DNA of 64,000 bases. Source: Chiloscyllium plagiosum. Its lineage: Eukaryota. Under the pieces are notes generated by a model. That model was not told the DNA's origin and searched no databases. It saw only the letters and a list, made by a program, of their open reading frames with translations. Below are positions 7,497 to 63,865 of the stretch, one piece after another. The position numbers and the translations under genes were made by a program. Every line of letters starts with the position of its first letter. The stretch's first letter is position 1. The stretch covers positions 11,222,507 through 11,286,506 of the forward strand of contig NC_057719.1 of assembly GCF_004010195.1 (NCBI RefSeq). Direction: 5' to 3'.

Positions 7497-7632
7497 GCCC
7501 CCTTCTCCTCCCCCAGTCCTGATGACAGGTTCCAACCTGAAACGTTGACTCCCTTTCTCCTTGGATGCTGCCTGACCTGCTGTGCTTTTTCCAGCTCCAC
7601 TCTGACTCACCAACATCAGCAGTCCTCACTAT
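7497..7632 (+). mobile_element. PLE-derived short element (family A) with a hammerhead motif
   Basis: Family A 3' terminus (ggatgctgcctgacctgctgtgc...gcagtcctcact) preceded by a hammerhead motif. Confidence 0.85.
7515..7550 (+). ncRNA. Minimal type I hammerhead ribozyme motif
   Basis: AGTC-CTGATGA-C-AGGTT cc AACCT-GAAA-CG-TT-GACT: perfect 4-bp stem I, stem II, and palindromic AACGTT at helix III. Confidence 0.75.
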
Positions 7633-7827
7633 CACTCATCAAATCTGTACAAATCTACCACAGTGCACTGGGCCCAGTGTCTCAAATTCACTTTATAGTC
7701 TAAACAAGACGAGGATCATCACCACAGTCTAACTGCTGTAAGCTAGCAATCCTCACAATCTAAACACAGCAAACTGCATTTGCATTTGTGAGGCACCTTG
7801 TAAAACATTGCTTAATTTGAGCTATGA

Positions 7828-8810: not shown

Positions 8811-9336
8811 GAGAGAGAGAGAAAGGAATAGTATGCCATATGCTTACTTATGAGAAAAGGTCAACCCCAGTTCAATATTTCGGCTTGGATACCTGTCAAT
8901 AGCCTCCTGCTACTTGTTGGGAATGCATGGCAATTTTACTATTGAACTGACATGACAAGGTAATGGTACAGTGTGATCTTCAAACCCACCCCCAATAACT
9001 ATGCAATGCACAAACATACAGACAATAAATATGCAGATACACACGCACAAACTTCAAACTTCATGTTCAGGAGGAGGAGCAAATCAAGTGTTAAAATTTA
9101 GCCTCAGCATTGCAAATGGAGAGAATAAGAGGGAGGGAGAGATTTGCCACTTTCAAAACATTTTGCAATTTCAGTGTTGGGTGCAGCTGTATTCTCCCTC
9201 TGTGGCTACAAGTGGAATAATAACTTTGTTTTTTAAATGCTGCCCTTAGCAACATTACCTCGGAAAAATCTGTACCAGAGTTAAAAGGTCTTTCCATTTT
9301 CTACAGCACTTTTCCTCTACCGTCCAGCGAAAATGA

Positions 9337-9665: not shown

Positions 9666-9870
9666 GAGGAGAAAGTGAGGTCTGCAGATGCTGGAGATCA
9701 AAGTTGAAACTTTATTGCTGGAACAGCACAGCAGGTCAGGCAGCATCCAGGGAACAGGAGATTCGACGTTTCGGGCACAGGCCCTTCTCCATTCCTGAAG
9801 AAGGGCCTGTGCCCGAAACATCGAATCTCCTGTTCCCTGGATGCTGCCTGACCTGCTGTGCTGTTCCAGC
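9666..9870. mobile_element. Fold-back PLE-derived short element (family A) flanked by a 185-bp direct duplication
   Basis: Arms gctggaacagcacagcagg...gcccttc / gaagggc...ctgttccagc; flanks 9481-9665 and 9868-10052 are direct copies. Confidence 0.92.
9791..9826 (+). ncRNA. Minimal type I hammerhead ribozyme motif
   Basis: ATTC-CTGAAGA-A-GGGC ctgt GCCC-GAAA-CA-TC-GAAT: perfect stems I and II and an intact core. Confidence 0.8.
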
Positions 9871-9934
9871 CCCAATATGCCTTCTCAGTACACTGTGCCT
9901 TAGGCACTAAATCGTGGAAGAGAATATGACCAAT

Positions 9935-12733
9935 TTCTATCCATCGTATGGACCGTACAGCATCCTCGGGTAAGACAAAGGGTGGAAGGGTTTGCTTTTT
10001 AATCAACAACTTGTGGTGCACGATCGTTGCAACCCTGGGCAGCCATGACTCCCCAAACCTTGAATTCCTCACTATCAAATACTGCTCCTTCTATCTACCG
10101 TGGGAATTTACTGCTGCTATACTAACTGCTGTGTACATATCGCCACAAGCAAAGGTTGACGAAGCTCTGGATGTGCTGTACTCCACCACTAACACCCTGG
10201 AGACGGAACACCCTGAGGCCCTGTTTATTGTGACTGGTGACTTCAATCAAGCCAATCTAAGGAAGGTGTTGCCCAAGGACCACCAGAACATTACCTGCCC
10301 CACCAGAGGCTCAAACATTTTAGACCACTGCTACACTACTGTGAAAGATGCCTACCACTCCATCCCCCACCCTCATTTCGGGAACTCCGACCATAATACT
10401 GTGTTTCCTCTCCCGGCTTACAGGGAAAAGCTCAAGCAGGAGACCCCCTCATAGATACAGGCTCCATGCTGGTCGGAGGAGTCAGAGGATCAACTCCGGT
10501 GCTGTCTGGAATCGGCTGATTGGGCCATGTTCAAACAGGCCACAGGTACCTTGGACAAATACGCCACCACCATCACAGACTTTATCAGCAAGGACTGCAT
10601 ACCAAGGAAGTCAATCTGGATGGGTTCCCCAACAGGAAACCATGGATGAATCAGGACACACAGAACCTGCTAAAAACCAGGTGTGAGGCCTTCAGATCAG
10701 CAGACCCACTCAAATATAAGGAACCCAAGTATGACCTTCACAGAGCCATTAGGACAGCCAAGGACCAATACTGATCCAAACTAGGGACCCAGACAGACAC
10801 CCGGCGACTATGGCAAGGACTGAATGACATCACAGGTTTTAAAAAGAGACAGTGTAAGATAGCAGATGATGACACATCCCTCCTTCTATGCTCACTTTGA
10901 GCAGAATTTCGGCGGAGAGGTAACACCTAATCCAACAGGTCCTGATGAACCTATCCCAACAGTCACTGCATCAGAGGTCAGATCAGTTTTCCTTCGTGTG
11001 AATCCAAGGAAAGCGATGGGACTAGACGGAGTACATTCTGGGCATGCGCAGATCAACTGGCAGAGGTCTTCTCTGCCTGTTTCAGGAGGGCCAACATCAT
11101 CCCTGTGCTTAAGAAGGCTCATGCAGCGTATCTCAATGACTACCGCCCAGTGGCCCTAACTTCGGTGGTCATGAAGTGCTTTGAAAGGCTGGTCATGGCA
11201 TTAATCAACTCCAGCCTCCCCACTACTCTTGACCTACTCCAATTTGCCTATCGAGCCAAGAGATCCACGTCAGATGCCATATCACTTGCCCTTCACTCCT
11301 CCCTAGAACATCTTGACACCAGAAACAGCTACTTAAGAATCCTACTCATTGACTATAGTTCAGCTTTCGACACTACTATCCCCTCGAAACTGGTTACTAA
11401 ACTTAGTGATCTCAGACTAAGCCCCACTCTCTACAACTGGATCTTCAGTTTCTGAGGGCAGCACGATGGCTCAGTGGTTAGCATTGCTGCCTCAGTGCCA
11501 AGGACCCAGGTTCGATTCCTGCCTGGGGCAACTGTCTGTGTGGCAACTGTGTGGAGTTTGCACATTCTCCCCATGGCTGCATGGGTTTCCTCCCACAGTG
11601 CAAAGATGTGCAAGTCAGGTGAATTGGCCATGCTAAATTGCCCATACAGGGGTAAATGTAGGGGAATGGGTCTGGTTGGGTTGCTCTTTGGAGGGTCGGT
11701 GTGAACTTGTTGAGCCGAAGGGCCTGTAGGGAATCTAACCTAATCTGAACCATTGGCCATAATCAGTGAAGATTGGGAACAATATTTCATCCTCACTAAC
11801 ACTCAACACTGGAGCCCCCCAGGGATGCATAATCAAGCCCTACTATACTCACTGTATATCCATGACTGCATCACCAGATACCAGACTAATGCCATTTACA
11901 AGTTCGCTGATGACACTACCACAGTCGGTCGAATCTCAGATGGCAATGAAACAGACTACAGACGGGAGGTGGAAGACCTGGAAAAATGGTGCACTGAGAA
12001 CAACCTAGCTCTCAATGCTGGCAAAACTCATTATTAACTTTCAGTGGGATGTTACTCATGCGCCCCTACACATTAACAGCACAGAGGTGGAACAAGTGGA
12101 GAGTGTCAAGCTCCTTGGAGTGGTCATCCACAACAAGCTTTCTTGGACCCTTCATGTGGACGCACTGGTTACAAAGGCCCAACAACGTCTCTTCTTCCTC
12201 AGGCAGCTGAGGAAATTTGGCATGACGGTGAATACCGTTGCCAACTTTTATAGGTGCACCATCGAGAGCATTCTGTCTGGATGTATCACTACCTAGTATA
12301 GCAACTGTACCATTCAAGATCTGAGACAGTTATAGAGAGTGGTGAACTCAGCCCAGACAATCACAAAGGCCAACCTCCCATCTATAGAATCCATCTACCA
12401 GGCCCGCTGTCAAGGAAAGGCCGCCAGCATTCTCAAAGATCCATCCCACCCTGGCAATGTTTTTCTACAACCCCTACCATCAGGAGAAGGTACAGAAGCA
12501 TGAACACATGCACCAACCGGTTTTGAAACAGTTTCTACCCTACTGTTGTATGAATGCTGAATAGACTCACAAACTCTTAACATTCATCTGTACCTGTGTT
12601 TTTGTTTTGTTTTTGCCACTGTTTATCTGTCATATACTTATCTGGGCTATTTAACTCGGTGATCTGCCTGCATTGCTTGCAAGACTGTGCCTCAGTACAC
12701 GTGATAATAAATTCAATTCAAATTCAATTCAAC
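9935..12733 (+). mobile_element. Rex1/Babar-clade LINE, 5'-truncated and decayed
   Basis: APE motifs GGRVCFLIN, AVYISP, IVTGDFN, ILDHCY, GNSDH (9948-10454); RT LNDYRPVALTSVVMKCFERLV, LQFAYR, ILLIDYSSAFDT, GAPQGC, YKFADDT; KAQQRLFFLRQLRKFG; 3' aataaa plus (ATTCA)n tail. Confidence 0.93.
11456..11746 (+). mobile_element. HE1-like V-SINE inserted in the Rex1 RT
   Basis: Same head, V-domain and tail as 4843-5173. Confidence 0.93.
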
Positions 12734-13190: not shown

Positions 13191-13517
13191 TGCTGCTCTA
13201 CTGCTATTGAACTGCGTGAGGTGGGGTGGGGCAGAGGTAAGATGAAGTGAAGGCAATTGGATCATCATTTAAATTGGAGACATTTTCAGGGTTACAAGGA
13301 AGAAGCAGGTGAGTGGTATAAAGTGCATTATTAATAAAGAGAGCCATTACAGAAAATGGGCTGAATCGTCTCCTGTGCTGTAAATGTTCTATAGTAGGGG
13401 AAATCAAGGGTTACAGAGAAAAAGCAGGAAAGTGGATCCTGAATGGTGGAGCAGGCCTGAGGGTCAGAACAGACTGCTATCGTTCCTTTTTCTTATGGGC
13501 TTATGATTCCAGGAAAT

Positions 13518-14780
13518 ACAAGGCATGATAGAAGAGGAAGTGCTGGATGTCTTGAAACGGGTAAAGGTGAATAAATCCCCAGGACCTGGTCAGGTGTACC
13601 CGAGAACTCTGTGGGAAGCTAGAGAAGTGATTGCTGGGCCTCTTGCTGAGATATTTACATCATCGATAGTCACAGGTGAGGTGCCGGAAGACTGGAGGTT
13701 GGCTAACATGATGCCATTGTTTAAGAAGGGTAGTAAGGACAAGCCAGGGAACTATAGACCAGTGAGCCTGACGTCAGTGGTGGGCAAGTTGTTGGAGGGA
13801 ATCCTGAGGGACAGGGAGTACATGTATTTAGAAATGCAAGGACTGATTAGGGATAGTCAACATGGCTCTGTGTGTGGGAAATCATGTCTCACAAACTTGA
13901 TTGAGTTTTTTGAGGAAGTAACAAAGAGGATTGATGTGGGCAGAGCGGTTGATGTGGTCTATATGGACTTCAGTAAGGCATTTGACAGGGTTCCCCATGG
14001 GAGACTGATTAGCAAGGTTAGATCTCACGGAATACAGGGAGAACTAGACATTTGGATACAGAACTGGCTCTCTGTATTGTTTTTCAGACTGGAGGCCTGT
14101 GACCAGTGGAGTGCCACAAAGTGCTGGGTCCTCTACTTTTTGTCATTTACATAAATGATTTAGATACGAGCAGCAGAATACAGTTAGTAAGTCTGCAGAT
14201 GACACCAAAATTGGAGGTGTAGTGGACAGCAAAGAAGGTTACCTCAGATTACAACAGGATCTTGATCAGATGGGCCAATGGGCTGAGAAGTGGCAGATGG
14301 AGTTTAATTCAGATAAATGTGAGGTGCTGCATTTTGGGAAAGCAAATCTTAGCAGGACTTATACACTTAATGTTCCCTGAAGCGTCGGAGGCTGAGGGGT
14401 GACCTTATAGAGGTTTACAAAATTGTGAGGGGGCATGGATAGGGTAAATAGGCAAAGTCTTTTTCCTGGGGTGAGGGAGTCCAGAACTAGAGGGTGTAGG
14501 TTTAGGGTGAGAGAGGAAAGATATAAAAGAGACCTACAGGGCAACATTTTCACATAGAGGGTGGTACGTGTATGGAATGAGCTACCAGAGGAAGTGGTGA
14601 AGGCTGGTACAATTGCAACATTTAAGAGGCATATGGATGGGTATATGAATAGGAAGGGTTTGGAGGAATATGGGCCGGGTGCTGGCAGTTGAGACTAGAT
14701 TGGGTTGGGATATCTAGCCGGCATGGACGGGTTGGACCGAAGGGTCTGTTTCCATGCTGTACATTTCTATGACTATGACA
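13518..14780 (+). mobile_element. CR1 (HER1-like) LINE, 5'-truncated with an internal deletion
   Basis: ORF 13525-14154 (KSPGP, VPEDWRLAN, NYRPVSLTSVVGK, VDVVYMDFSKAFD); deletion near 14371; 3' tail. Confidence 0.95.
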
Positions 14781-19532: not shown

Positions 19533-21881
19533 CTAGTAATGTTTTCTACTAAAGCTTCTGCAAAAAAAGAAAGCATTCTATTTCCTTCTAGCTCAGAGCC
19601 ATGACTGTACAGGAGGCTGTTCAGCCCATTGTGTCTGTGATAGTCTCATTATAAAAGAATATTCTATGGGAGAACATCCAACCTTGGCAAGTTCACACAG
19701 TCATTACCCATCACAACCCATTGTACACTCTGAATGATCTTTCTTTTTCATCAAAGTTGACTCAAAGGGTGTGTACTGCGCACATAATCAACAGATGCCC
19801 ATTTAATGGCCATTCCAAGTCTTTTCTTCAGGCAATGGCGATGTGGGTAGAGAGATTCGACTTGGATTTCGAAAAAGAGGGGTTGACCAAAAAAGAAAGC
19901 TTTAATCATCTCTGATGAAGTGCATCATGAGAATGCATCTTGTCAGTTCAAAGTAACTCACCCTTTCGAGAAGTGAGGATAGTAGAGGACAAGTGTCTTT
20001 AATAAGAAAAATATTTAATTGGAAATTAAATTCCACAAAATAAATATTTCCAGGGTTGAGAATTGTATTTATTTTTCTCCTTCCTTACTGCAGATTATTG
20101 GCTTTACTCAAATGCTATGCACGATTCCACAGTTGAAGGCACAGGATACATTCAAGGACAGTAGCATTGTAATATTGTGGCAACGCTCCAAAGCCAACAG
20201 TTCATATCTCACCACGGCACCTGTGGGAATTTAAATTCAGTGAATAAATCTGGGATAAAACCTAGTCTCCTTAGTTTCATAATTAAGACGAATGAATTGC
20301 CCGAAAAACCCATCTGATTCAAGACAGGAAATCTGATATCCTTACTAGGCCCGGCCTACGTATGACTCCAGTCAACACAGTGTTGACTCTTAACTGACCT
20401 CTTCACCGCAGTGGTTCCAGAATATGGCCACTCTCTCAAGGGCGATTAAGAACAGCAATGCCTTTCGAGAGAGATGGGTGCTACAGGAGGCAGAATGCTT
20501 CATTTCCCTCTCCAACTCCATACGGATTTAGCCCCTTCCTGTTCTCCCCACCTCCCCTTCACCATTTGATTGTTTACAGTGCCTGTGATGGGCTTTTCAT
20601 GTAAATATTCAATCGACCACACGGGTGATTTACTGCTGGTGGTGGTTAGTAGTTAAAAATCAAAAAAAAGGTAACATGCAATAAACATTGGACATGACAA
20701 TGGTACAAATAATGAATTAGAAAGAGAATTTCAGTTCATAGGAAAATACAGAAAATGTTCCACACCAACAGAAAAAGCAACAGACCAGTCAGCTATTTCT
20801 ACTAACTGCTAAAAGCTTAATTCCTCAAGATTTAAGCCCTGCTTGCTGGATTTATTCCTTTGGACATACGCAAAGATGACACAGCAGTTAGTATGCCTAA
20901 ACAGGAGCTTTTTTTTAATGGTTTAACATACTCACTCTCTCATGTAGCTTAAATCTCAAAAGACAAACATAATGAAGCACCGAACAATGGGACACGACAC
21001 AGCAAACCCCCGGTTGTTGAATAGATGGAGCTTGGAAAGTGTTGAGAATTCACTGCCGTCCCCTCCACCTCCCCGTGTCATCTAGTAAAATGATGTAATG
21101 ACTTAATTCAAAATGACTGTTAATTTCAGGCACAAATTTTAGAAATTATAATTCCACCCACAACTAGGGATGCAGCCATTAAATATTAATACAATGTTTA
21201 AACTCTGTGTCCCTCTTGGGTTTCTAAAGCATGTTCATCACAAATCACTAATATGCAGGGTCAGGATGGATGGAAAACTCGTTCAGCACTGCTTTTCCTC
21301 ATTTGCTCATTCTCTGGGTGAACATTGATGAGTATGAACAGCCTGTTGCACCTACTTTATTTGGGACACAGTGTCAAAGTTCACCAACTACAAGTCAGGG
21401 GCTTCAACTGAGTCAGCTTGTCGGATTCCACCCACAATATTCTTGACTTTATACTTTATAAAATACTTTATACTATCTCCATATCACACCTCACATGCAA
21501 AAGGACATCCTTAAGCATTTGCAAAGGAGATTCTGAGCAAGTCGGAAAACATCACAGCGGTGAGAGGGAGAAAAGAATGGCGTCTAAGTTTCTGACCTTT
21601 CTCCCCAACTCTTTGGAAAACACCGAGAGCTTTTACAAATTACACTACAAATGCATGACAGGCCTTTTCGTTTATTACTGTTGTTCGAACAGGAAACTCA
21701 GAGCAAAATGACTTGGCAGATAAGTACAAGCAACAGTTACTCAAACCCAATGCAATTTTCACCAAATGTCACAGTGTGCAGTGAAAATACCAGAGGAGGC
21801 CCCATGGACATGACAGAACAGGAAAGGTTGGAGTGGTGCTGGAAAAGTTCAGCAGGTCAGGCAGCATCCGAGGAGTAGGAA

Positions 21882-21917
21882 CATCGATGTTTCGGGCAAA
21901 AACCCTTCATCAGGAAT
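21882..21917 (-). ncRNA. Minimal hammerhead ribozyme motif (mirror copy)
   Basis: Reverse complement reads ATTC-CTGATGA-A-GGGT tttt GCCC-GAAA-CA-TC-GATG. Confidence 0.72.
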
Positions 21918-21925
21918 GAGGCCTC

Positions 21926-21961
21926 ATTCCTGATGAAGGGCTTCTGCCTGAAACATCGATT
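21926..21961 (+). ncRNA. Minimal hammerhead ribozyme motif
   Basis: ATTC-CTGATGA-A-GGGC ttct GCCT-GAAA-CA-TC-GATT. Confidence 0.75.
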
Positions 21962-23514
21962 CTTCTGCTCCTTGGATGCTGCCTGACCTGCTGTGCTTTT
22001 CCAGCACCACTCTAATCTAGACTCTGATCTCCAGCACCTGCAGTCCTCACTTTCACCTAGAACAGGAAAGTCTGGCAGTTCCATTTGAAAGCCTGGGTAT
22101 GCTCCACAGCACATCAAAATATTAAAATGCATTAACACAGAAAATGCTGGATAGACGCAACGGGTCAGTAGAAATCTGCTGGAGAGTAAAGGATCAGGTC
22201 AGGTGACGTTTGTTCTCATGAAGCTCCAGCCAAATCTCAAGCTTATCTTTCATCTTCCTATTTCTACACACTGTGTACTTTTCGCTTTAACTTCAGAACT
22301 CCAATTCTAATTATTGATCAATTCCTGGCATTTTTCTCCCTCACATATGTATTTAAACATTGTGAGTGTAGGTATATACTGGAGATTGGATAGTTCTCCA
22401 TTTCTCTGTGATAGTTGCTGACTGCCCACATATCTTCAATGAGAAACAGCCAATGACAGAAAATGGAAGATATTACATTTAACAGTTGGTCCCTATAATC
22501 ATGTGAATTAGCATTGATTACCTGATTGCATGGGGGAGGAATTTTCCAAAAAGATTTCAGCATTAAATTACATGCTGTGAATGGGAGATGAATAGAACGT
22601 AAGACATGCTTAAGTTAGGCTGCTCTAATCGCCATGATGTGGGGCAGACCTGATGGATGAGCAGATAATTTTCCATCCATCAGAACCTGGCTACTCCAGT
22701 GAGGTTACTCACTGTGCAAGTGATAAAGACCAAAGAGGTAGAATGGGAGCTGGCTACCTCATGCCCACAGTCACATAGTCTACTGACATTGTCAGTTCTA
22801 CAGTGAAAAAAATAAGGGAGATGGACTGATTGATTCACTCTTATGGAGAGCTGGCATTGACACAACAGGCCTTCCATTCTGCTGAACCATTCTATGTCTA
22901 TGCCTGAACTCAGAAATGAAATGGGTATGGTGGCTTCAACCATGAATGAAGCGAGGAAGAAATCTTGCATCTAATTAATGGGCTTGGGATTTGAATCTAA
23001 CACAAAAGTGAAGCGCGAGTTATGCATGAAGAACCTGAATCTCAAGATCAAATCTCAGCTTTGACACTTTTCCAAATTAATAAGGCAGCACATCCATCAT
23101 GTAGTTCGGCCACTGGGCATGTACATAATTCAGGTTCAGGCCCATTTGTGTGGCTATCACCCTGAATGTCAGACTGGTGCTCAATGATCATGCAAGATAC
23201 TCATGGGAGGGAGTAACAACTCTAACGTCATGGCTGGCAGGCTGAAAAGAAAGAATGGACAGGGTAACCAGTGTCAGTCCCACTGTTTAAAACAGAACTC
23301 TGGAAACTCTATCTTGTTTTTTGAATAGTAGCTTTAAAATAATAAAATTATCCAAAGCATCTCTCCCTTGGCCCAATGGGAAGATATATTTGAAGGTGAA
23401 TGCTGCCTAGCTTGCTGTGCTCTTCCAGCCTCCTGCTTGCCTATTTTGGATTCCAGCATTTGCAGTTTTTTTGTCTCAAACAAAATCAACAAGGCAAGAG
23501 GTGACAGTTTTATG

Positions 23515-23615: not shown

Positions 23616-23645
23616 TCCACAAGTCAAGGGGTTTAAGCCAATGTC

Positions 23646-23739
23646 TAGATTAGAGTGGTGCTGGAAAAGCACAGCAGGTCAGGCAGCATCCAAAGAGCAG
23701 GGCAAAAGCCATTCATCAGGAAAGTCCTTGTTTTTACCT
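23646..23739. mobile_element. Internally deleted PLE-derived short element (family A) with a 20-bp TSD
   Basis: TSD aaggggtttaagccaatgtc at 23626-23645 and 23740-23759; contains ttcatcaggaa (CTGATGA on the minus strand). Confidence 0.85.
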
Positions 23740-23787
23740 AAGGGGTTTAAGCCAATGTCAGTCGATTGAACAAGGAAACTAATTTGG

Positions 23788-34474: not shown

Positions 34475-34592
34475 TAGAGAAGGGGCAGTGCTCTCAAAGC
34501 TTGTAATTTCAAATAAACCTGTTGGACTTTAACCTGGTGTCGTGTGACTTCTGACTTTGTCCACCCCAGTCCAACACCAGCACCTCCACATC
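34475..34592 (+). mobile_element. PLE-derived short element (family B), single arm
   Basis: gaaggggcagtgctctcaaagcttg...aaataaacctgttggactttaacctggtgtcgtgtg...ccccagtccaacacc. Confidence 0.8.
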
Positions 34593-34984
34593 AGGATTAA
34601 GGTTAACATACAGGTTCAGTTCACAGTTTTTTATTCACTCATGGGATACAGGCGAAGTTGGCTAGGCCAGCATTTATTGCCCATCACTAATTTCCCAGAG
34701 GGAATGTAAGAGGCAACCACACTGCTGTGGATCTAGAGTCGCATATAGGTCAGACCAGGTCAGGTAGTTTCCTTTCCTGAAGGATATCAGTAAACCAGGT
34801 CGGTTTTTCAGCCAATCGACAATGGATCCATGGTCATCATCAGACTCTTAATTTCAGATATTTATTGAATTCACATTCCACCAATTGCAATGGCAGTTTC
34901 AAACCCAGGTCTCCAGAACATTGCCTGGATTTCTGGATTAACAGTCTAGCGATAATACCACTAGGCCATTGCCTCCCACCTAAT

Positions 34985-36590
34985 AGGAAGTTAGAAAGGC
35001 AAATGCAATTTCATGAGTGCTAGAATACAAGAGTGGGAGGGCTAGAAAACAGGATGTATTGCTGAGGCAATCTAAGGATCTGGTCAGACTGCAATTGGAA
35101 TATGGAGAGTAGTTTGGACCAGAATCTTAGGAAAATGAGGTGGCACTGGAGGCTGTTTAGAGGAGGTGAACAAGTCTGATCCTGGTGCTGTCATATAAGG
35201 AGTGGTTGAGGACCTTGGGTTCAGAAGAATGAGGGGGAATCTCATTGAAACTTACCTTGTTACTGAGAGGCCTGGATAGAGTGGACTTGGAAAAGATGTT
35301 TCCATTAGTAGGTGAGACTAACACCCGAAGGCACAGTCTTAGAGTGAAGGGACAACCCTTTAGAAAGGAGAAGAGGAAAACTTTCTTCAGCCAAAGGCTG
35401 GTAGAACTCATTGCTTCAGAAGACTGTGGAGGTCAACTCACTGAGTGCATTTAAAACAGAAATAGATAGATTCTTGATAGTAAGGAGATCAAGAGTTACA
35501 GGAAGAAGATGGGTCAATGGGGTTGAGAAACATATTAGCCATGAAGCAATGGTAGAGAAGACTCAATGGGCCAAATGGTCTAATCCTACTTCCAATATCT
35601 TATGGTATTATACTGTCATACATGACTTGCATATCAATAGAAATGCAGCATTCATGTGCTCATTTGATACTGCTGGCTTTTTCATCAATCTACCAGTCGT
35701 AGAAATCACAGACCTCTGCAATGCAGAATTATATCATGACGATTTAGACCCATTCTACATTCCCTCTAACGCAAGTGGGAAAAAAGCTGGCAAATCGAAT
35801 ATAACATGGGAAAATGTGAAGTTGCTCATTTTGGAAGGGAGAAAATGAACAGAGTACAATTTAAATGGAGAAAACTGCAGAAAGCTGCAACATAAAGGAA
35901 TTTATAGCTACTTGTCATGAAACACAGAAAGCTAGCACACAGATACAGCTGGTAATCAGGGAAGGCTAATGGAATATTGGCTGTTATTTCAAGGTGGGGA
36001 ATGTATAAGAGTAGGGAAGTATTACTGCAACTCTGTTAGATGCTACTGAGAGCATATCTGGAGTACCGAGTGTAGTTTTGGTCCCCTTAAGAAAACATAT
36101 CATTTAATCGGAGGCAGTTCCGAGAAGTTCACTAGGATTATCCCCAGTAAGAGGAACTTTCTGATGACCAAAAGCTAAATAGGTTGGACTCTACTCATTG
36201 GAATTTATAAGAATGGGAGGTGATCTCATTGAAACATAAAGGATTCTTAATGGGCATGATAGGGTAAATACTGTGAGGATGTTTCCCCTCATGGGGGTGT
36301 CTAGTCTCAAAAGAAAGAGGTACCAATTTAAGACTGAGATGAGGAGGAATTTCTTCTTTCAAAAGGTTGCGAATCTTTGGAACTCCTTGCCAAGAGAGAT
36401 GTGGGGCAGAGACCTTGTGTATATACAAGGTCGAGATAAACAGATTCTTGATCAGTTGAGGAATCAAAGGTTACGGGGAAAGGGCAGGAAAGTGGACGTG
36501 AGGAGTGTCAGATCAGCCATGATCCTATTGAATGGTGGAGTACGGTCAGAGCTGAATGGCCTATTCCTGTTCCTATTTGTTATGGTCCTG
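34985..36590 (+). mobile_element. Two CR1 3' fragments (about 34985-35610 and 35790-36590)
   Basis: LRGLDRVDLEKMFPLVG; FKTEMRRNFFFQKVANLWNSLP. Confidence 0.85.
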
Positions 36591-37412: not shown

Positions 37413-37636
37413 TTGGAGGTGCTGGTGTTGGACTGGGGTGTACAAAGTTAAAAATCACACAACACCAAGTTATAGTCCAATAGGTTAATTTGGTAGCACT
37501 AGCTTTCGGAGCACTGCGAATTCTGTGTCTTACGATCTTATAATCCACAACCACTTAATGAAGGAGCAGTGCTCCGAAAGCTAGTGCTTCCAAATAAACC
37601 TATTGGACTATAACCTGGTGTTGTGTGATTTTTAAC
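37413..37636. mobile_element. Fold-back PLE-derived short element (family B)
   Basis: Arms agttaaaaatcacacaacacca...ctagctttcggagcactgc / gcagtgctccgaaagctag...tggtgttgtgtgatttttaact; hammerhead remnant cac-TTAATGA-A-GGAGC agt GCTCC-GAAA-GC-TA-gtg. Confidence 0.88.
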
Positions 37637-38354
37637 TATGATAGCTACCATCAATTGTTTTTGTAAAAACCCATTATGTTTCACTGAGAGCAAATGGAAG
37701 GAAGTCTGATATCTTTGCAGCATGTGACTCCATACCTACAACAATGTAGTTGACTCTTAACTGTTGTCTGAAATGGCTCAGCAAGTCACTCAGTTAAAAG
37801 GCAGTTTGGGATGGGTAACAAGTGCTGGTGTTTCCAGTGTTGCCTACACACGTTAAAGAACAAATCAAACAAACCTCCAATTTTCTCCTGTAAGTGTTTT
37901 TCTAATTTCCACTCAGATGCACTTCACTGTGGTAGCAAATTCTACATTTCTAATAATTTTCGATGCAAAGAATTTTCTCAATTGGAATTGTGTTATATTC
38001 TTTGCTATCCTTAAGTAATTGGAAATATTTTCTCCATATCTACCAAATCAAATCCTTCAATGCTTTTGAGAAGACATCACAAGCTGCTTCTTCCTTTCTA
38101 TCAATAATACCTTTCCACAGAAGGTGTTTGAGGTTAGACATGGAAAAATGTTGGTTAATTCAAAGAGTCTAACAAAACAGGAACACAAAATTAATTTGTA
38201 AGCTTCTGCCTAAATTTTCAGATAAGTATCTCCATCGATTATGGATGCATTAATATACAAAGAAATATTCATCACAAACTGGAAGCTTTAGATTTTAATT
38301 GCTTTGCTATTAATCAGTGATATAAAGGAAGAATCTTCATCAACTCAAGATGAC

Positions 38355-40872: not shown

Positions 40873-41090
40873 AGCAAACGTGAGGACTGCAGATGCTGGA
40901 AACCAGAGCCTAGATTAGAATGGCGCTGGAAAAGCAAAGCAGGTCAGGCAGCATCCGAGGAGCAGGAAAATTGATTTTTCGGGCATTCCCTTCAGGAATG
41001 CTGAAGGGCTTTTGCCTGAAACGTCGATTTTCCTGCTCCTCAGATGCTGCCTGACCTGCTGAGCTTTTCCAGCACCACTCTAATCTAGAC
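40873..41090. mobile_element. Fold-back PLE-derived short element (family A) with a 14-bp TSD
   Basis: TSD aataggtctcctca at 40859-40872 and 41091-41104; inverted arms around 40998; hammerhead cores disrupted. Confidence 0.93.
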
Positions 41091-41843: not shown

Positions 41844-41849
41844 AACAGA

Positions 41850-42130
41850 TTTAGAGATACCGGTGTTGGACTGGGGTGTACAAAGTTAAAAATCACATAA
41901 CATCAGGTTATAGTCCAACAGATTTATTTGGAACCACTAGCTTTCAGAGTGCTGCTCCTCCATCAGGTGGATGTGGTGTTTAACACTGTAAGACACAGAA
42001 TTTACATTAAAAATTTACAGTGTGATGTAACTGAAATGATACATTGAAAAGGACCTGGATTGTTTGTTAAGTCTCTCATCTTTTAGAACGAACATGTTGG
42101 TTTCAGTTCTTTCATATGTAAATTATAAAA
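41850..42130 (-). mobile_element. PLE 3' terminal fragment (family B)
   Basis: ggtgttggactggggtgtacaaagttaaaaatcac...cactagctttcagagtgctgctcctccatcaggtgg (mutated hammerhead on the minus strand). Confidence 0.82.
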
Positions 42131-46974: not shown

Positions 46975-47780
46975 TCTCTTTTAATCTTTCTCCACTCACC
47001 TTAAAAGTATGCTCCATAGTTTAGAACTCCCCTACCCTAGGGGAAATATCTTTGCTATTCACCTTGTCCACATCCCTCATGATTTTATAAACCTCTACAA
47101 GGTCACCCCTCAACCTCCTACATTCCAGTCCCAGCTTATCCAGCCTCTCTTTATAACTCAAACCCTCTAGTCCCGGCAAACCCCTGGTACCGAACCCTCT
47201 CCAATTTATGATTTGGAAGAGCCGGTGTTGGACTGGGGCGAACAAAGTTAAAAATCACACAACACCAGATTATAGTCCCACAGGTTTATTTGGAAGCACT
47301 AGCTTTTGGAGCGCTGCTCCTTCATCAGGTGGTTGTGGACACTACAAAGAAGGAGCAGCGCTCTGAAAGGTAGTGCTTCCAAATAAACTCATTGGACTAT
47401 AACTTGGTGTTGTGTGATTTTTAACTCTCCACTTTAGTAATAGCCTTCAACTAGAAGGGTGACCAGAATTCTACACAGCACTCCAAATGTGGCCTCACCA
47501 TCTTCCTGTACAAACTCAACATGACGTCCCTGATCCAAGCAATGAAGGGAACATGCTAACCACCTTCCTAACCACCCTGTCTACCAATGATGCAACTTTG
47601 AAAGAACGATGTATCTGAACTCCTAAGCCTCTCTGTTCTGCAACATTATCCAGGGCCCTACCATTAACTGTATAACTCCTGCCCTTGTTCACTTTACCAA
47701 AATGCAATACCTCGCACTTACCCAAAGTAAATTCCATCTGCGACTCCTGGGCCCAATGGCCCAACAGATTGACCATTGGG
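46975..47780 (-). mobile_element. CR1 fragment interrupted by a family B palindrome
   Basis: LPGLEGLSYKERLDKLGL; KCEVLHFGK. Confidence 0.88.
47210..47425. mobile_element. Fold-back PLE-derived short element (family B)
   Basis: Inverted arms; minus strand reads cac-CTGATGA-A-GGAGC agc GCTCC-AAAA-GC-TA-gtg; imperfect TSD ctctccaattta / ctctccacttta. Confidence 0.9.
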
Positions 47781-50250: not shown

Positions 50251-50634
50251 ATTCTCTTCCCTTGGGATAGTCCTGCCTTAATTAAAATATTGGGTTATAT
50301 TCCAGAGTGCTTGGATTCATATCCCATCATTTAACTTTGGGAAATTGAATCTGTTTTACAATTCTGAAAATGTAAAGTCAGTAAGGACTCCAGATTGCTT
50401 TAAAAACACAACTAATTCACGAATATCCTTTAGTGAATGGAAAATATCATCCCCACCCAGTCTGGCCTACATTTGACTCTAATCCCATGCAAATATGATT
50501 GATTCAACTTTCTATTGAAGTGGCCAAGCAAATCACTGGTTAGTTGTATCAAACTCTAACCATTAAAGTGCAGGGCACTGTGGCACAGTAGTAGTATTCC
50601 TATCTCTGGGTCAGAAGGCCGAGGTTCAAATCCA

Positions 50635-50726
50635 GGGGTCAAAAAGTGTTCCACTGGAAAAATGCAGCTGGTCAGACAGCATCCAAGGAGCAGGAGAGTC
50701 AAAGTTTTGGGCCCTTCATCAGGAAT
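50635..50726 (-). mobile_element. PLE-derived short element (family A), single arm, 11-bp TSD
   Basis: TSD gttcaaatcca at 50624-50634 and 50727-50737; ends gcccttcatcaggaat. Confidence 0.85.
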
Positions 50727-51211
50727 GTTCAAATCCAACCTGTTTCAGAGCTGTGTCATAACATATCTGGATAGATTCATCAAAAGACATCGAAACTGAG
50801 GAATGGTCAGAAGTGTTTACCTTCCTTTTCCTTCTCTCCATTTTGGGCTAGGTAGCACAGTGGTAGTGTTACTACCTCTAGGCCAGAAGGTTCAAGTTCA
50901 ACTCCCATCTGCCTAGACGGGTATCATAATATGCCCAAACAGCTTGATTTACAAAGATTCAGAGATGATTATCCAGACATGATAATCTCCAATGAGAGAC
51001 TTTCCTTTGACCTCAATGGTATTAGCACCACTGAATCCCACACAATCAATACCCAGAGTGTTACTATTGACCAGAAACTGAACTGACTCGCCATATAAAA
51101 ACTGTGGCTATAACAGTAGGGTCAAAGGCTGAGAATTCTGCACTGAGTAACTCATATCCTTAAAACGTGCCCACCATTTACAAGGAATAAATCAGGAGTG
51201 CAATGGAATAC

Positions 51212-51964
51212 ACAGGTCAGGCAGCACCCAAAGAGCAGGAGAACTGATGTTTCAGGCATAAGCCCTTCATCACATTTCCTGTTGAAGGGCTTATGCCCGA
51301 AACATTGGTTCTCCTGCCCCTTGGATGCTATCTGACCTGCTGTGCTTTTCTAGCGCCACAGGGGCAGCAAAGTGTACCATGTACAAGAAAATCTGCAACA
51401 ACCCTTTTTTTCATGGAATCCTTAGAGTGTGGAAACAGGCCAGTCGGTGCACACTAACCCTGCAAAGAGCATCCCACCCAGACCCACCTCCCAAACCTAT
51501 CCTTGTAACCCCGCATTTTCCAATGGCTAACCCACCTGACCTACACATTCCTGAACATTACAGGCAGTGGGCGGCACGGTAGCACAGTGGTTAGCACTGC
51601 TGCCTCACAGCGCCAGAGACCCGGGTTCAATTCCCGACTCAGGCGACTGACTGTGTGGAGTTTGCACGTTCTCCCCGTGGCTGCGTGGGTTTCCTCCGGG
51701 TGCTCCGGTTTCCTCCCACAGTCCAAAGATGTGCAGCCCAGGTGAATTGGCCATGCTAAATTGCCCGTAGTGTTAGGTAAGGGGTAAATGTAGGGGTATG
51801 GGTGGGTTGCGCTACGGCGGGTCAGTGTGGACTTGTTGGGCCGAAGGGCCTGTTTCCACACTGTAATGTAATCTAATCTAATCTAATCTAATCTAATCTA
51901 ATCTAATCTAATGTAAAAACCTTTAGGCTCTGATCTCCAGCATCTGCAGTCCTCCCTTTCTCCC
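51212..51964. mobile_element. Fold-back PLE-derived element (family A) split by a 212-bp local copy plus a SINE
   Basis: Arms at 51212-51356; remainder ctctgatctccagcatctgcagtcctc at about 51925-51964; TSD agtgcaatggaatac / agtgtaatggaatac (51197-51211, 51965-51979). Confidence 0.85.
51569..51912 (+). mobile_element. HE1-like V-SINE, young copy with a long (AATCT)n tail
   Basis: CpG-rich complete copy. Confidence 0.96.
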
Positions 51965-53589: not shown

Positions 53590-54248
53590 TGGCACAGTGG
53601 TTAGCACTGCTGTCTTAGGGACGCGGGTTCGATTCTAGCCTCAGGCAACTGTCTGTGTGGAGTTTGTACATTCTCCCTGTGTCTGTGTGGGTTTCCTTCC
53701 ACAGTCCAAAGATGTGCAAATGGATTGGCTATGCTAAATTACCCCTAGTGTCCAGGGATGTACATTCTAGGTGGATTAGCCATGACAGATGCAAGGTTAC
53801 AGACATAGGGTGCATAAGGTGGGATGCTCCCTGGATGGTAGTGCATATCCAATGAGCCAAATAGCGTCTTTCTGCACTGCAGGGATTCTATGATGATGGG
53901 CGGCATGGTGGCTCACTAGTTAGCACCTCTGCCTCACAGTGCCAGGGACCCGGGTACAATTCCAGCCTTGGGCGACTGCCTGTATGGAGTTGCACATTCT
54001 CCCGTGCCTGTGTGTGGGTTTCCCCTGGCTGCTCCAGTTTCGTCCCACAGTCCAAAGACGTGCATGTTAGGTGAATTAGGAAATTTCCCATAGCGTCAAG
54101 GGATGTGTAGGTTAGGTACGTTAGCCATCTGAAATGCAGGGTTACAGAGATGTGGTAGGGGGATGGGTCTGGATGGGATGGTCTTCCAAGGGTCGGTGTA
54201 TACTTTTTGGGCCAAATGGCCTGTTTCCACACAGTAAGGGTTCTATGA
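53590..54248 (+). mobile_element. Head-to-tail pair of HE1-like V-SINEs (53590-53893 and 53898-54248)
   Basis: Two heads and two tails (gggattctatga, gggttctatga). Confidence 0.92.
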
Positions 54249-54521
54249 AAATCATTATATCAGTATCAAACATGTTATGATATCATGAAAATGAATCTTA
54301 AAGGTGTGCTGATTTATTGACCATGAGATATAACACAAAAAAAATTAGTTTTTGTTACGACACAGTGGTGAACCCTTCTGTTAATCAAACCAAGCACCCA
54401 GAAATGCTCACCTCGCCTTCTAATCTGTTAAAATATGAGTGAGAGAACTCCCAAATTCCACTATTTAAAGAAAATAATATCAATTTATAATTTAACTCCA
54501 AAACTGAACATTAAACAACAA

Positions 54522-54632
54522 ACGGGGAGAACGTGCAAACTCCACACAGACAGTCGCCCGAGGCGGGAATTGAACCCGGGTCTCTGGTGCTGTGAGGCAG
54601 CAGCGCTAACCACTGTGCCACCGTGCCGCCCA
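54522..54632 (-). mobile_element. 5' third of an HE1-like SINE between 276-bp direct repeats
   Basis: Head intact (ccgtgccgccc on plus), ends inside the V-domain; flanks 54246-54521 and 54635-54910 are direct copies. Confidence 0.92.
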
Positions 54633-54740
54633 TGTGAAAATCATTATATCAGTATCAAACATGTTATGATATCATGAAAATGAATCTTAAAGGTATGCTG
54701 ATTTATTGACCATGAGATATAACACAAAAAAAATTAGTTT

Positions 54741-56429: not shown

Positions 56430-56625
56430 CTAAGAACCGCAGGTGCCGGAAATCAAAAGCAGAAACAGATATTACTGGAAACCTCAGCAGGTCTGTTAGC
56501 ATCTGTGGAGAGAAAGCAGAGTTAGTGTTTTGGGTCCAGTGACCCTTCTCCAAACCTGAAATATTGACTCTGTTTTCTCTCCACTGATGCTGAGTTTCTC
56601 CAGCAATTTCATTTTTTGTTTCTGA
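56430..56625. mobile_element. Fold-back PLE-derived short element (family C)
   Basis: cagaaacagatattactggaaacctcagc...gcatctgtggagagaaagcagagt / actctgttttctctccactgatgctgagtttctccagcaatttc...tgtttctg, inserted in a SINE head. Confidence 0.75.
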
Positions 56626-61784: not shown

Positions 61785-62120
61785 ATTTTATAATCTTCAA
61801 TTTCTGGACAGTCCAGGGTACTCTCGAAGGATGGCAACCCTAACCCATCCTTATTATTTGTGAACCAATGGACAATTTAACTTCAAGAATTTAACGGCAG
61901 AAGAACTGAAGGTGGCATTAAAAAAAGGTGGTTATGATCTGGAATGTGCTGCCCAGGAGTGTGGTAGAAGCAAATTCAATATGGACTTTCTAAAGGGAAT
62001 TGAATAATTATCAAAAGACAAAAAATACCATGGAGAAACGCCAAAGGACTGGGATGAGGAAAATCGCTCACGAAGAGAGACAACATGGGAGTGACAGGTT
62101 GGATGGTTTCCTTCTATACA

Positions 62121-62216
62121 TCATTCCTGATGAAGGGCTCCGGCCCGAAATGTCGATTTTCCTGTTCTTTGGATGCTGCCTGACCTGCTGGGCTTTTCCA
62201 GCAACACACTCTCAAC
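62121..62216 (+). mobile_element. PLE-derived short element (family A), single arm, 12-bp TSD
   Basis: TSD tccttctataca at 62109-62120 and 62217-62228; the element starts 2 nt before the hammerhead. Confidence 0.92.
62123..62158 (+). ncRNA. Minimal hammerhead ribozyme motif
   Basis: ATTC-CTGATGA-A-GGGC tccg GCCC-GAAA-TG-TC-GATT. Confidence 0.78.
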
Positions 62217-63865
62217 TCCTTCTATACAGCACCCAACTAAGACGGGTTGCTGCCGAGGATAAGACTAAACTTCAATATTGTCACAATGCACTCCATGAGC
62301 GTCCAATGGTACTACTCCATGAGATAAAATCCCTTCACGGGTTCAACCTTGTCATGATGTTTACAAATTAATTCCCAAGTCAGTCAGCATTTAACACATG
62401 GTTGACAATTTGGACCTCACAGAGAATCAGGATACAAGAGTGCGCAGCACAAGAGAATCCAAAATACAAACCAATTTAAGAGACAATGCGCAAAACGCAG
62501 CTCCATATTGCCACACACTTTGCAGAAAAGCTTGACTCTCATCTAACATTCAGCAAAATCTTTAGCAAAGCACTAATGAGATGATCATAAAACATTGACA
62601 TTGAGAACCAAGAGTGAAGACTTCAGCTGCCTGAAGGAAACCGGCAATTCACACTGAAAATTAGTTTATTCTGTATTGGAAAATAGGTCCCACTTTGTAT
62701 TTAGAATTTAAGAAAAAGACATTAATGCTCACTTCAGCAGCTTTGGTGTGCATGCTTATGATGTTGTTCACAAGGTCATGATTAAACTTCATAACAACTT
62801 ATACGTGAGTTCAGCAATGTTTGGCTGGTTAATCTATAAGTATACTTTGAATCCTGATAAACACATAATTACTTTGCCCACAATGGATTAAGCTAGACCA
62901 GGCTATTTATTAAAAATGTCCTGAAGGCTTTTACTGTCTGATTGTGATCACAGATTCTGAAATTTTCTCTCCATACCTACCATGGTAGATTTTCTGGATT
63001 ATAGTCTAATGATTGGTACCTATCTGAAGGACTGAGGATATTATTGAGGTAGGGCAAGGCTAGTGCAGTAGTAGTGTCACTAGAATAGCAATCCAGAGCA
63101 TCAGGCTAATGTTCTGGGGAATATGTTAGCTTTGACATTTACAATTTAAAGAAAGCAATAAAAATAGCAACCACATAACTACTGCTGATGAGGATCTGAA
63201 ATCTGAATATAGGCTGTTATCAGGAACAACAATTTAATACATTCTCTTAGTAACATAGGCAGCAACAAAATGGCTTCTTATGCAAGTAACATGACAAAAT
63301 GGCTTCTAGGCTACAAATTGACAATTCTGCTTAAAAGCTGCATAAAATGGCTTTTATCCCTGCTAAAAGCTGCATTCCTGAATTAACCATAGTGTGCTTT
63401 AATAAAGATTAGCAGTCAATGCTTCCTTTACAGCATAGAAATAACTAGACTAGATAAGACATTACTAGCCATCCTAACTGACTTTGCAAATGCCAAAGTG
63501 GAGAAAATAGTTTCGGGAGATAAAGGTGCTTGGATGTGTAAAGCAAGGTTGGTTCCCGGGAACGATCATTGTGCTAAGTTGCTGTCAATAATGTTATTTT
63601 ATTAAATTTGATTGGTAATTGTTTGAATCTATTCTGTAACTATGGCTGTACTTCTTTTAAAAAAATACATAAAAATGTCTTTGTCTTAAGCCATATGTGC
63701 AGTTCCTCCTAGGGACATAGAAGTGTTTAACCTCTGTGTCGCTGGACAACCTGTGCTTGGACGTAAGATGAAGTGTGAAATCTTACAGAACCAGCCTGAA
63801 TTGCTAGTGTTTATTGACTGGTCGCGGAACAGAGAGGCACCACACCGCACCACCACCCTTCTACC

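Follow-up and report, generated by a model that had tools for sequence, protein, structure and literature searches.

A hairpin of two head-to-head end-repeat copies with a minimal hammerhead on each strand in Chiloscyllium plagiosum, likely a decayed insertion of a Penelope-like retroelement

Why should a shark genome hold a long hairpin whose two arms meet without a spacer and whose two strands each carry a hammerhead-like motif? The question is raised by a locus on contig NC_057719.1 of Chiloscyllium plagiosum, which we analysed within a 64-kb window (the whole stretch of DNA under study, 64,000 nucleotides). Such a structure might be a device kept by the host, an element that moves as a palindrome, or the residue of a particular kind of insertion. 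Judging from its architecture, we believe that a Penelope-like retroelement very probably inserted here, leaving its end repeat (pLTR) twice in head-to-head orientation, and that the mirror arm likely arose in the course of that insertion.

Most of the anatomy proposed in the initial annotation was recovered. Its arms of about 95 bp without a spacer correspond to inverted arms of 97 nt each, located by a repeat finder over the 64-kb window (21825-21921 and 21922-22018) and lying 0 nt apart. Its extra tail of about 40 bp on one arm is a 40-bp extension of the right arm that has no partner on the left, and its perfect 12-bp flanking duplication is an exact direct repeat enclosing an insert of 232 bp (21827-22058). 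When the same spacing was applied as a control at 8986 window positions, the sole 12-bp flanking repeat was the hairpin's own. The description of the hairpin as near-perfect was too generous: the arms are 88% complementary and differ at 12 of 97 positions, with transitions accounting for 10 of the 12 mismatches. The junction itself is a perfect palindrome of 19+19 bp, and nowhere else in the window does a sequence come closer to the central 28 bp than 10 mismatches. The features are collected in Table 1.

Table 1. Features of the hairpin insertion and the head-to-head pairs of its family in the 64-kb window
Feature	Position	Strand	Basis or remark
Left flanking direct repeat, likely target-site duplication	21815..21826	+	exact match to 22059-22070
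Shorter inverted arm, a tailless 5'-truncated end repeat	21827..21921	-	88% complementary to right arm
Minimal hammerhead, minus strand	21886..21913	-	core letters intact, 4-bp stem II, ACAU (helix III palindrome broken), 2 contiguous stem I pairs
Perfect 38-bp palindrome at inversion junction	21903..21940	.	centre in no other window copy
Long arm, portion common to short arm	21922..22018	+	repeat finder, family alignments
Minimal hammerhead, plus strand	21930..21957	+	core letters intact, stem II closing G-U not G-C, ACAU (palindrome broken)
40-bp one-arm tail, family sequence not flank	22019..22058	+	also in long arms of pairs 2238, 9667 and 40877 and in solos
Right flanking direct repeat	22059..22070	+	exact match to 21815-21826
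Five head-to-head pairs of the family	2238-2418, 9667-9874, 21825-22058, 40877-41090, 51213-51359		right-arm alignments

The initial annotation missed the other hairpins in the window that are built from the same repeat. A search of the window with the right arm gave 18 alignments, self included, which resolve into five head-to-head pairs and several solo arms. The centres differ in all five pairs. Four of the five combine a long arm, extending as far as reference position 132-137, with one that stops at 88-101, and in the fifth both arms are short; the arm ends used here are those of the right-arm alignments, since a second local alignment ran past four arm ends into the flank. The tail is family sequence carried by one arm, which may be the left or the right. 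Flanking duplications are variable in length, measuring 20, 11 and 12 bp around the solo arms at 23626-23759, 50624-50737 and 62109-62228 and 14 bp around the pair at 40877-41090, so that the range at these four other family copies is 11-20 bp. Eight inverted pairs were checked for a duplication at the expected ends, and only three have one (21825, 40877 and 47209), while one is doubtful and four have none, a point against the preferred reading.

The window, about 32% of which is self-repeated, holds further structures of related shape. A further small inverted repeat sits in the centre of the 40877-41090 pair, suggesting that more than one strand switch may have occurred at the junction. A second hammerhead family, which looks unrelated and is set apart by its stem II and by a helix III palindrome of the AGCU type, is present at 37443-37640, 47209-47426, 34479-34593 and 41849-42002; it builds the same head-to-head shape at 37443-37640 and 47246-47426, and its pair at 47209-47426 has a 37-bp overhang and a 12-bp flanking repeat with 1 mismatch. 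A third repeat takes the same shape at 56498-56591. At 53896-54694, two inverted SINE-like repeats are separated by 546 bp, and a direct repeat of 60 bp occurs without mismatch at 54246 and 54635.

Assignment of the hairpin to the Penelope-like elements rests on architecture and is very likely correct, with four features found together. An inverted and 5'-truncated end repeat is joined head to head, as in five pairs in the window. One end carries a tail, of 40 bp at the hairpin, and arms of unequal length recur in four of the five pairs. A short duplication of variable length flanks the insert (12 bp here and 11-20 bp at four copies), and the end repeat contains a minimal hammerhead according to a descriptor scan. 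It is described as standard for Penelope-like elements that the 5' end bears a 5'-truncated copy in inverted orientation and that one end carries a tail of 30-40 bp (Craig et al. 2021, PMC8557442), and insertions have been reported that have 8-10-bp duplications and in which one inverted pLTR is extended by a 31-bp tail (Arkhipova et al. 2013, PMC3846280). A Penelope-like origin, which the initial annotation did not recognise, accounts jointly for the arms, the tail, the duplication and the hammerheads. The hairpin is a decayed, short insertion and an ordinary copy of a kind already described. The literature on Penelope elements and sharks that we searched yielded no account of such stubs, although Repbase, Dfam and the supplements of PMC4209133 may already contain the family.

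Against the assignment stands the result that no open reading frame for a Penelope reverse transcriptase or GIY-YIG endonuclease is linked to any family copy in the 64-kb window by motif scan or Pfam. The only Pfam matches in the window frames scanned are retroelement domains, namely RVT_1, Exo_endo_phos_2 and an ALKBH8_N match beside a reverse-transcriptase remnant, which is a usual match to LINE C-termini. Broken remnants of a LINE-type endonuclease and reverse transcriptase occupy 9930-12293 and 13507-14154 by the same Pfam searches. A short frame at 35600-35770 resembles a fragment of a Penelope-type reverse transcriptase; it has no Pfam match to a reverse transcriptase, its nearest ESM Atlas clusters are eukaryotic at 0.95 with one RVT_1-bearing cluster at 0.88, and it adjoins no copy of the hairpin family. 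Pfam revealed no host exon in 148 of 180 non-repetitive frames of at least 58 aa and 9 longer frames, a search that short exons would escape. Outside the window, true family copies were absent from the collections of viral contigs, metagenome contigs and prokaryote genomes; nine matches in prokaryote genomes were rejected as chance, having only 20-34 of 137 bases aligned. Of the 24 sequencing runs listed for the locus, 20 contain at least some of it and 8 contain half or more, with no RNA run among them, and a second organism shares 0.36-0.42 of the sampled words; we attach no evidential weight to these shares.

The places at which copies begin raise the question of what RNA was copied. All five pair junctions fall at reference positions 1-25, the hammerhead core begins at 9 and the cleavage site follows 36. 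The three duplication-bounded solos start at positions 3, 4 and 6, that is, 3-6 bases ahead of the core, and in two of them the hammerhead has internal deletions. One could propose that the template was not a long element truncated at random but a short non-coding RNA, about 135 nt in length and starting just ahead of the hammerhead, which would resemble a SINE in being mobilised by Penelope proteins, the inversion still arising at insertion. The solo starts, the clustering of all five junctions and the lack of any coding remnant adjoining a copy in the window are what such a template would leave, but the numbers are small and the reference itself begins at position 1. Furthermore, the copy at 1978-2078 is preceded by pyrimidine-rich sequence that may be an upstream part of the element, although this sequence has no second copy in the window, and a reverse transcriptase stalling at the hammerhead fold gives the same clustering. 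We regard this proposal as possible though rather unlikely, and it is a variant of the preferred explanation, not a separate family of explanation. A stall at the fold, the start of the RNA or a splice acceptor could each place solo starts and junctions near the 5' edge of the hammerhead. Another solo, at 7511-7635, has a hammerhead with a palindromic helix III, four helix I pairs and the cleavage triplet GUU, and just before its helix I is a pyrimidine run ending in CAG that resembles a splice acceptor.

Far less probable is that the hairpin is a fixed palindromic, non-autonomous element, either MITE-like or a hairpin retrozyme, that moves as a unit together with its centre. Its small size, its flanking duplication and the presence of several hairpins of like size within 64 kb are what one would expect of such an element. 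A unit that moves with its centre should reproduce that centre, yet the centres of all five pairs are different, and that of the hairpin finds no second match in the window with fewer than 10 mismatches. Likewise, a one-sided tail and solo arms with duplications of 11-20 bp are at odds with a DNA transposon that has a fixed target-site duplication length. The hairpin was accordingly rejected as a MITE, for which one of its ends is also a tail instead of a repeat. It was rejected as a non-LTR retrozyme as well, since there is one motif per strand arranged head to head and no tandem array, which the definition given in the preprint on these elements demands (bioRxiv 10.64898/2026.07.22.740005).

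The two arms of the hairpin are 86.9% alike over their aligned core, and each has a closer match elsewhere, the right arm at 91.8% (arms at 2238-2418) and the left at 90.2% (two other arms). Two observations fit the preferred explanation less well. Mutual best matches between the arms of a pair occur in just two of the five pairs, and the hairpin is not one of them. Polarized by the majority of all other copies, 9 of its 12 arm differences are assigned to the left arm and 2 to the right, with 1 unresolved, which is lopsided; polarized by the nearest pair (40877), they split about evenly. Because the arms are less like each other than like other copies, and because transitions predominate among their differences, there is no sign that pairing has been maintained, and both arms have likely been decaying neutrally since insertion. 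The pair at 9667-9874 has arms that are 98.4% alike over the core and that have in common the letters of their own subfamily. It looks like a fresh insertion from one template family, the hairpin looking older by this comparison. This pair represents a sister subfamily of younger appearance with a 4-bp helix I, and its flanking duplication was not recovered. Two short arms have an A at reference position 73, which might have pointed to two templates; this reading was set aside, because copies vary at that position (7 T, 3 C, 1 A and 1 G).

A descriptor for minimal hammerheads finds six motifs in the window, two of them in the hairpin, compared with a mean of 0.16 and a maximum of 2 in 50 shuffles. 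The initial annotation had reported a complete hammerhead core on each strand. The core letters are indeed there: both motifs retain CUGAUGA, an extra A, a 4-bp stem II, GAAA and a UH, which supplies both arms with stem II and the core boxes CUGANGA, GAAA and UH of the minimal hammerhead (min-HHR). A complete hammerhead was not confirmed, as helix III is lacking, only two contiguous helix I pairs are present, the palindrome needed for a dimer is broken in both arms and no Rfam match supports the motifs. Specifically, no Rfam hammerhead model reaches its gathering score anywhere in the window, and none is represented in the 17 matches that the hairpin gives up to E=10; the sub-threshold Rfam matches at the hairpin are to generic microRNA-hairpin models, lie far below threshold and were rejected. 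An alternative monomer helix III for the minus arm, consisting of three pairs closing UCGA in a forced fold, was also rejected because it excludes the formation of helix I.

Min-HHRs are described as having no helix III of their own, so that a palindromic stretch of four letters pairs two ribozymes, and as showing undetectable cleavage as monomers and low cleavage as dimers; the descriptor features and opposite-strand pairs are also described there for metazoan Penelope-like elements (PMC4209133). In both arms of the hairpin this stretch reads ACAU, and the self-complementarity that would form the dimer helix III (positions 15.2-16.2) is lost. The G of ACGU is present in 7 of the 12 other copies that have a letter at that column, and the change from ACGU to ACAU would fit CpG decay. 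The dimer helix III duplex is computed at +2.8 kcal/mol for the hairpin copy versus -3.1 for the family form. Since the motifs are of a minimal, dimer-dependent type and the helix III palindrome is broken, both putative ribozymes have likely lost their activity, whether or not the hairpin surrounds them.

A transcript from either direction is predicted to form double-stranded RNA, as had been anticipated, with a computed energy of -183.9 kcal/mol, a z score of -17.8 and none of 200 shuffles as good, and with the motif buried. Comparing a single arm with the full palindrome, the probability of hammerhead stem II falls from 0.90-0.98 to 0.0 on both strands, and forcing the ribozyme shape costs 46.6 (plus strand) or 49.5 (minus strand) kcal/mol in the full hairpin versus 4.6 in the arm alone. 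The earlier suggestion that the hairpin competes with ribozyme folding is therefore upheld as computed physics, but the working ribozyme that it presupposed has probably been lost already. Extrusion of a cruciform, also suggested, may occur under negative supercoiling, but for the central 38 bp it is computed to be uphill by about +14 kcal/mol before junction costs, two hairpins of -18.1 each standing against a duplex of -50.4.

Might the host have selected this fold, as a ribozyme restrained by its antisense arm or as a source of small RNAs or edited double-stranded RNA? The great stability on both strands would suit such a role, and Penelope repeats in a lizard and palindromic repeats in a frog are reported to be heavily A-to-I edited (PMC5625713). 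Nonetheless, we consider selection very improbable, given that the arms match each other less well than they match other copies, that both hammerheads are damaged, and that nothing more specific than sub-threshold microRNA-hairpin matches was obtained. In addition, the younger-looking pair (9717-9870) folds better per nucleotide than the hairpin, at -1.02 vs -0.86 kcal/mol/nt, so that the hairpin is not exceptional in its fold. It is plausible from the predicted fold that the hairpin is a double-stranded RNA and ADAR substrate only if the locus is transcribed, and in that event its editing would be expected and unremarkable in light of the lizard and frog repeats; self-contained intronic hairpins are known ADAR targets in the frog (PMC5625713). 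Under the Penelope-like explanation, the predicted potential to form double-stranded RNA is a by-product of insertion.

Fold-back chimeras occur in some assemblies and are a general possibility for any hairpin, but an assembly artefact, or two independent insertions meeting head to head by chance, is scarcely credible where 12 of 97 positions distinguish the arms, one duplication brackets both and other copies repeat the pattern, including its stereotyped tail.

How, then, would an end-repeat insertion acquire its mirror arm? A Penelope element of a lizard has been found to cut and extend both target strands, with two internal start sites for reverse transcription that bound the tail and with uncleaved RNA being inserted (Frangieh et al. 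2024, PMC11167929). By analogy, the GIY-YIG endonuclease of the element would have made staggered cuts 12 bp apart at the present locus, and reverse transcription would have proceeded from each cut strand, beginning at one of two internal RNA sites about 40 nt apart. Use of the outer site would produce the tailed arm and use of the inner site the tailless arm. Both reverse transcripts would end close to the hammerhead's 5' edge, where a short self-complementary overlap would allow them to be joined, and gap filling would generate the 12-bp duplication, with the hammerheads as passengers of the end repeat. This sequence of double nicking, two-strand priming, joining and gap filling is the most likely course by analogy. 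Priming on two strands is favoured because one long and one short arm are seen in four of five pairs and because the lizard element has a two-strand biochemistry. Fold-back self-priming, as proposed for Penelope-like elements with head-to-head junctions and palindromes of 18 and 38 bp (Arkhipova et al. 2013, PMC3846280), would yield the same hairpin product.

A single copy such as this one, a decayed insertion of a known kind, is of little weight. The family as a population could be modestly important, however, because the formation of inverted junctions in Penelope-like elements is still called undefined (PMC8557442), and because intronic hairpins in frog and Penelope repeats in lizard are targets of ADAR (PMC5625713). 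We tentatively raise the thought, which we hold to be doubtful at present, that the stubs record two-ended, target-primed reverse transcription of a short, hammerhead-led non-coding RNA, in which the two cut strands would each prime a copy, one from either start site, with both copies ending at the 5' edge of the hammerhead. If two-ended priming is true, the genome would contain thousands of insertion records that could decide between twin priming and self-priming, a matter unsettled for Penelope, and self-contained double-stranded RNA hairpins would be seeded genome-wide.

Comparison with known systems places the hairpin closest to the insertions of endonuclease-bearing Penelope-like elements. 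As in the examples described for these, a truncated copy is joined head to head, with a palindrome of 38 bp here and of 18 or 38 bp there (PMC3846280, PMC8557442); the tail is 40 bp here and 30-40 bp there, and the duplication 12 bp versus 8-10 bp. Unlike full Penelope-like insertions, the hairpin consists of two end stubs with no open reading frame between or beside them. Relative to the min-HHR as described (Cervera and de la Pena 2014, PMC4209133), the hairpin no longer has the palindrome in either arm, and its plus arm has a closing G-U. The PAc Poseidon element of Anolis offers a parallel: two end points bounding a tail lie about 90-130 nt downstream of its hammerhead, and its insertions, like the hairpin, retain the uncleaved hammerhead (PMC11167929); the lizard biochemistry is applied here by analogy. 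Finally, the hairpin resembles the non-LTR retrozymes as presented in the preprint, which are non-coding, carry type I hammerheads, derive from Penelope pLTRs and include one reported chondrichthyan case (bioRxiv 10.64898/2026.07.22.740005). Those elements are head-to-tail tandems with at least two ribozymes on the same strand, whereas the hairpin is a head-to-head structure with one on each.
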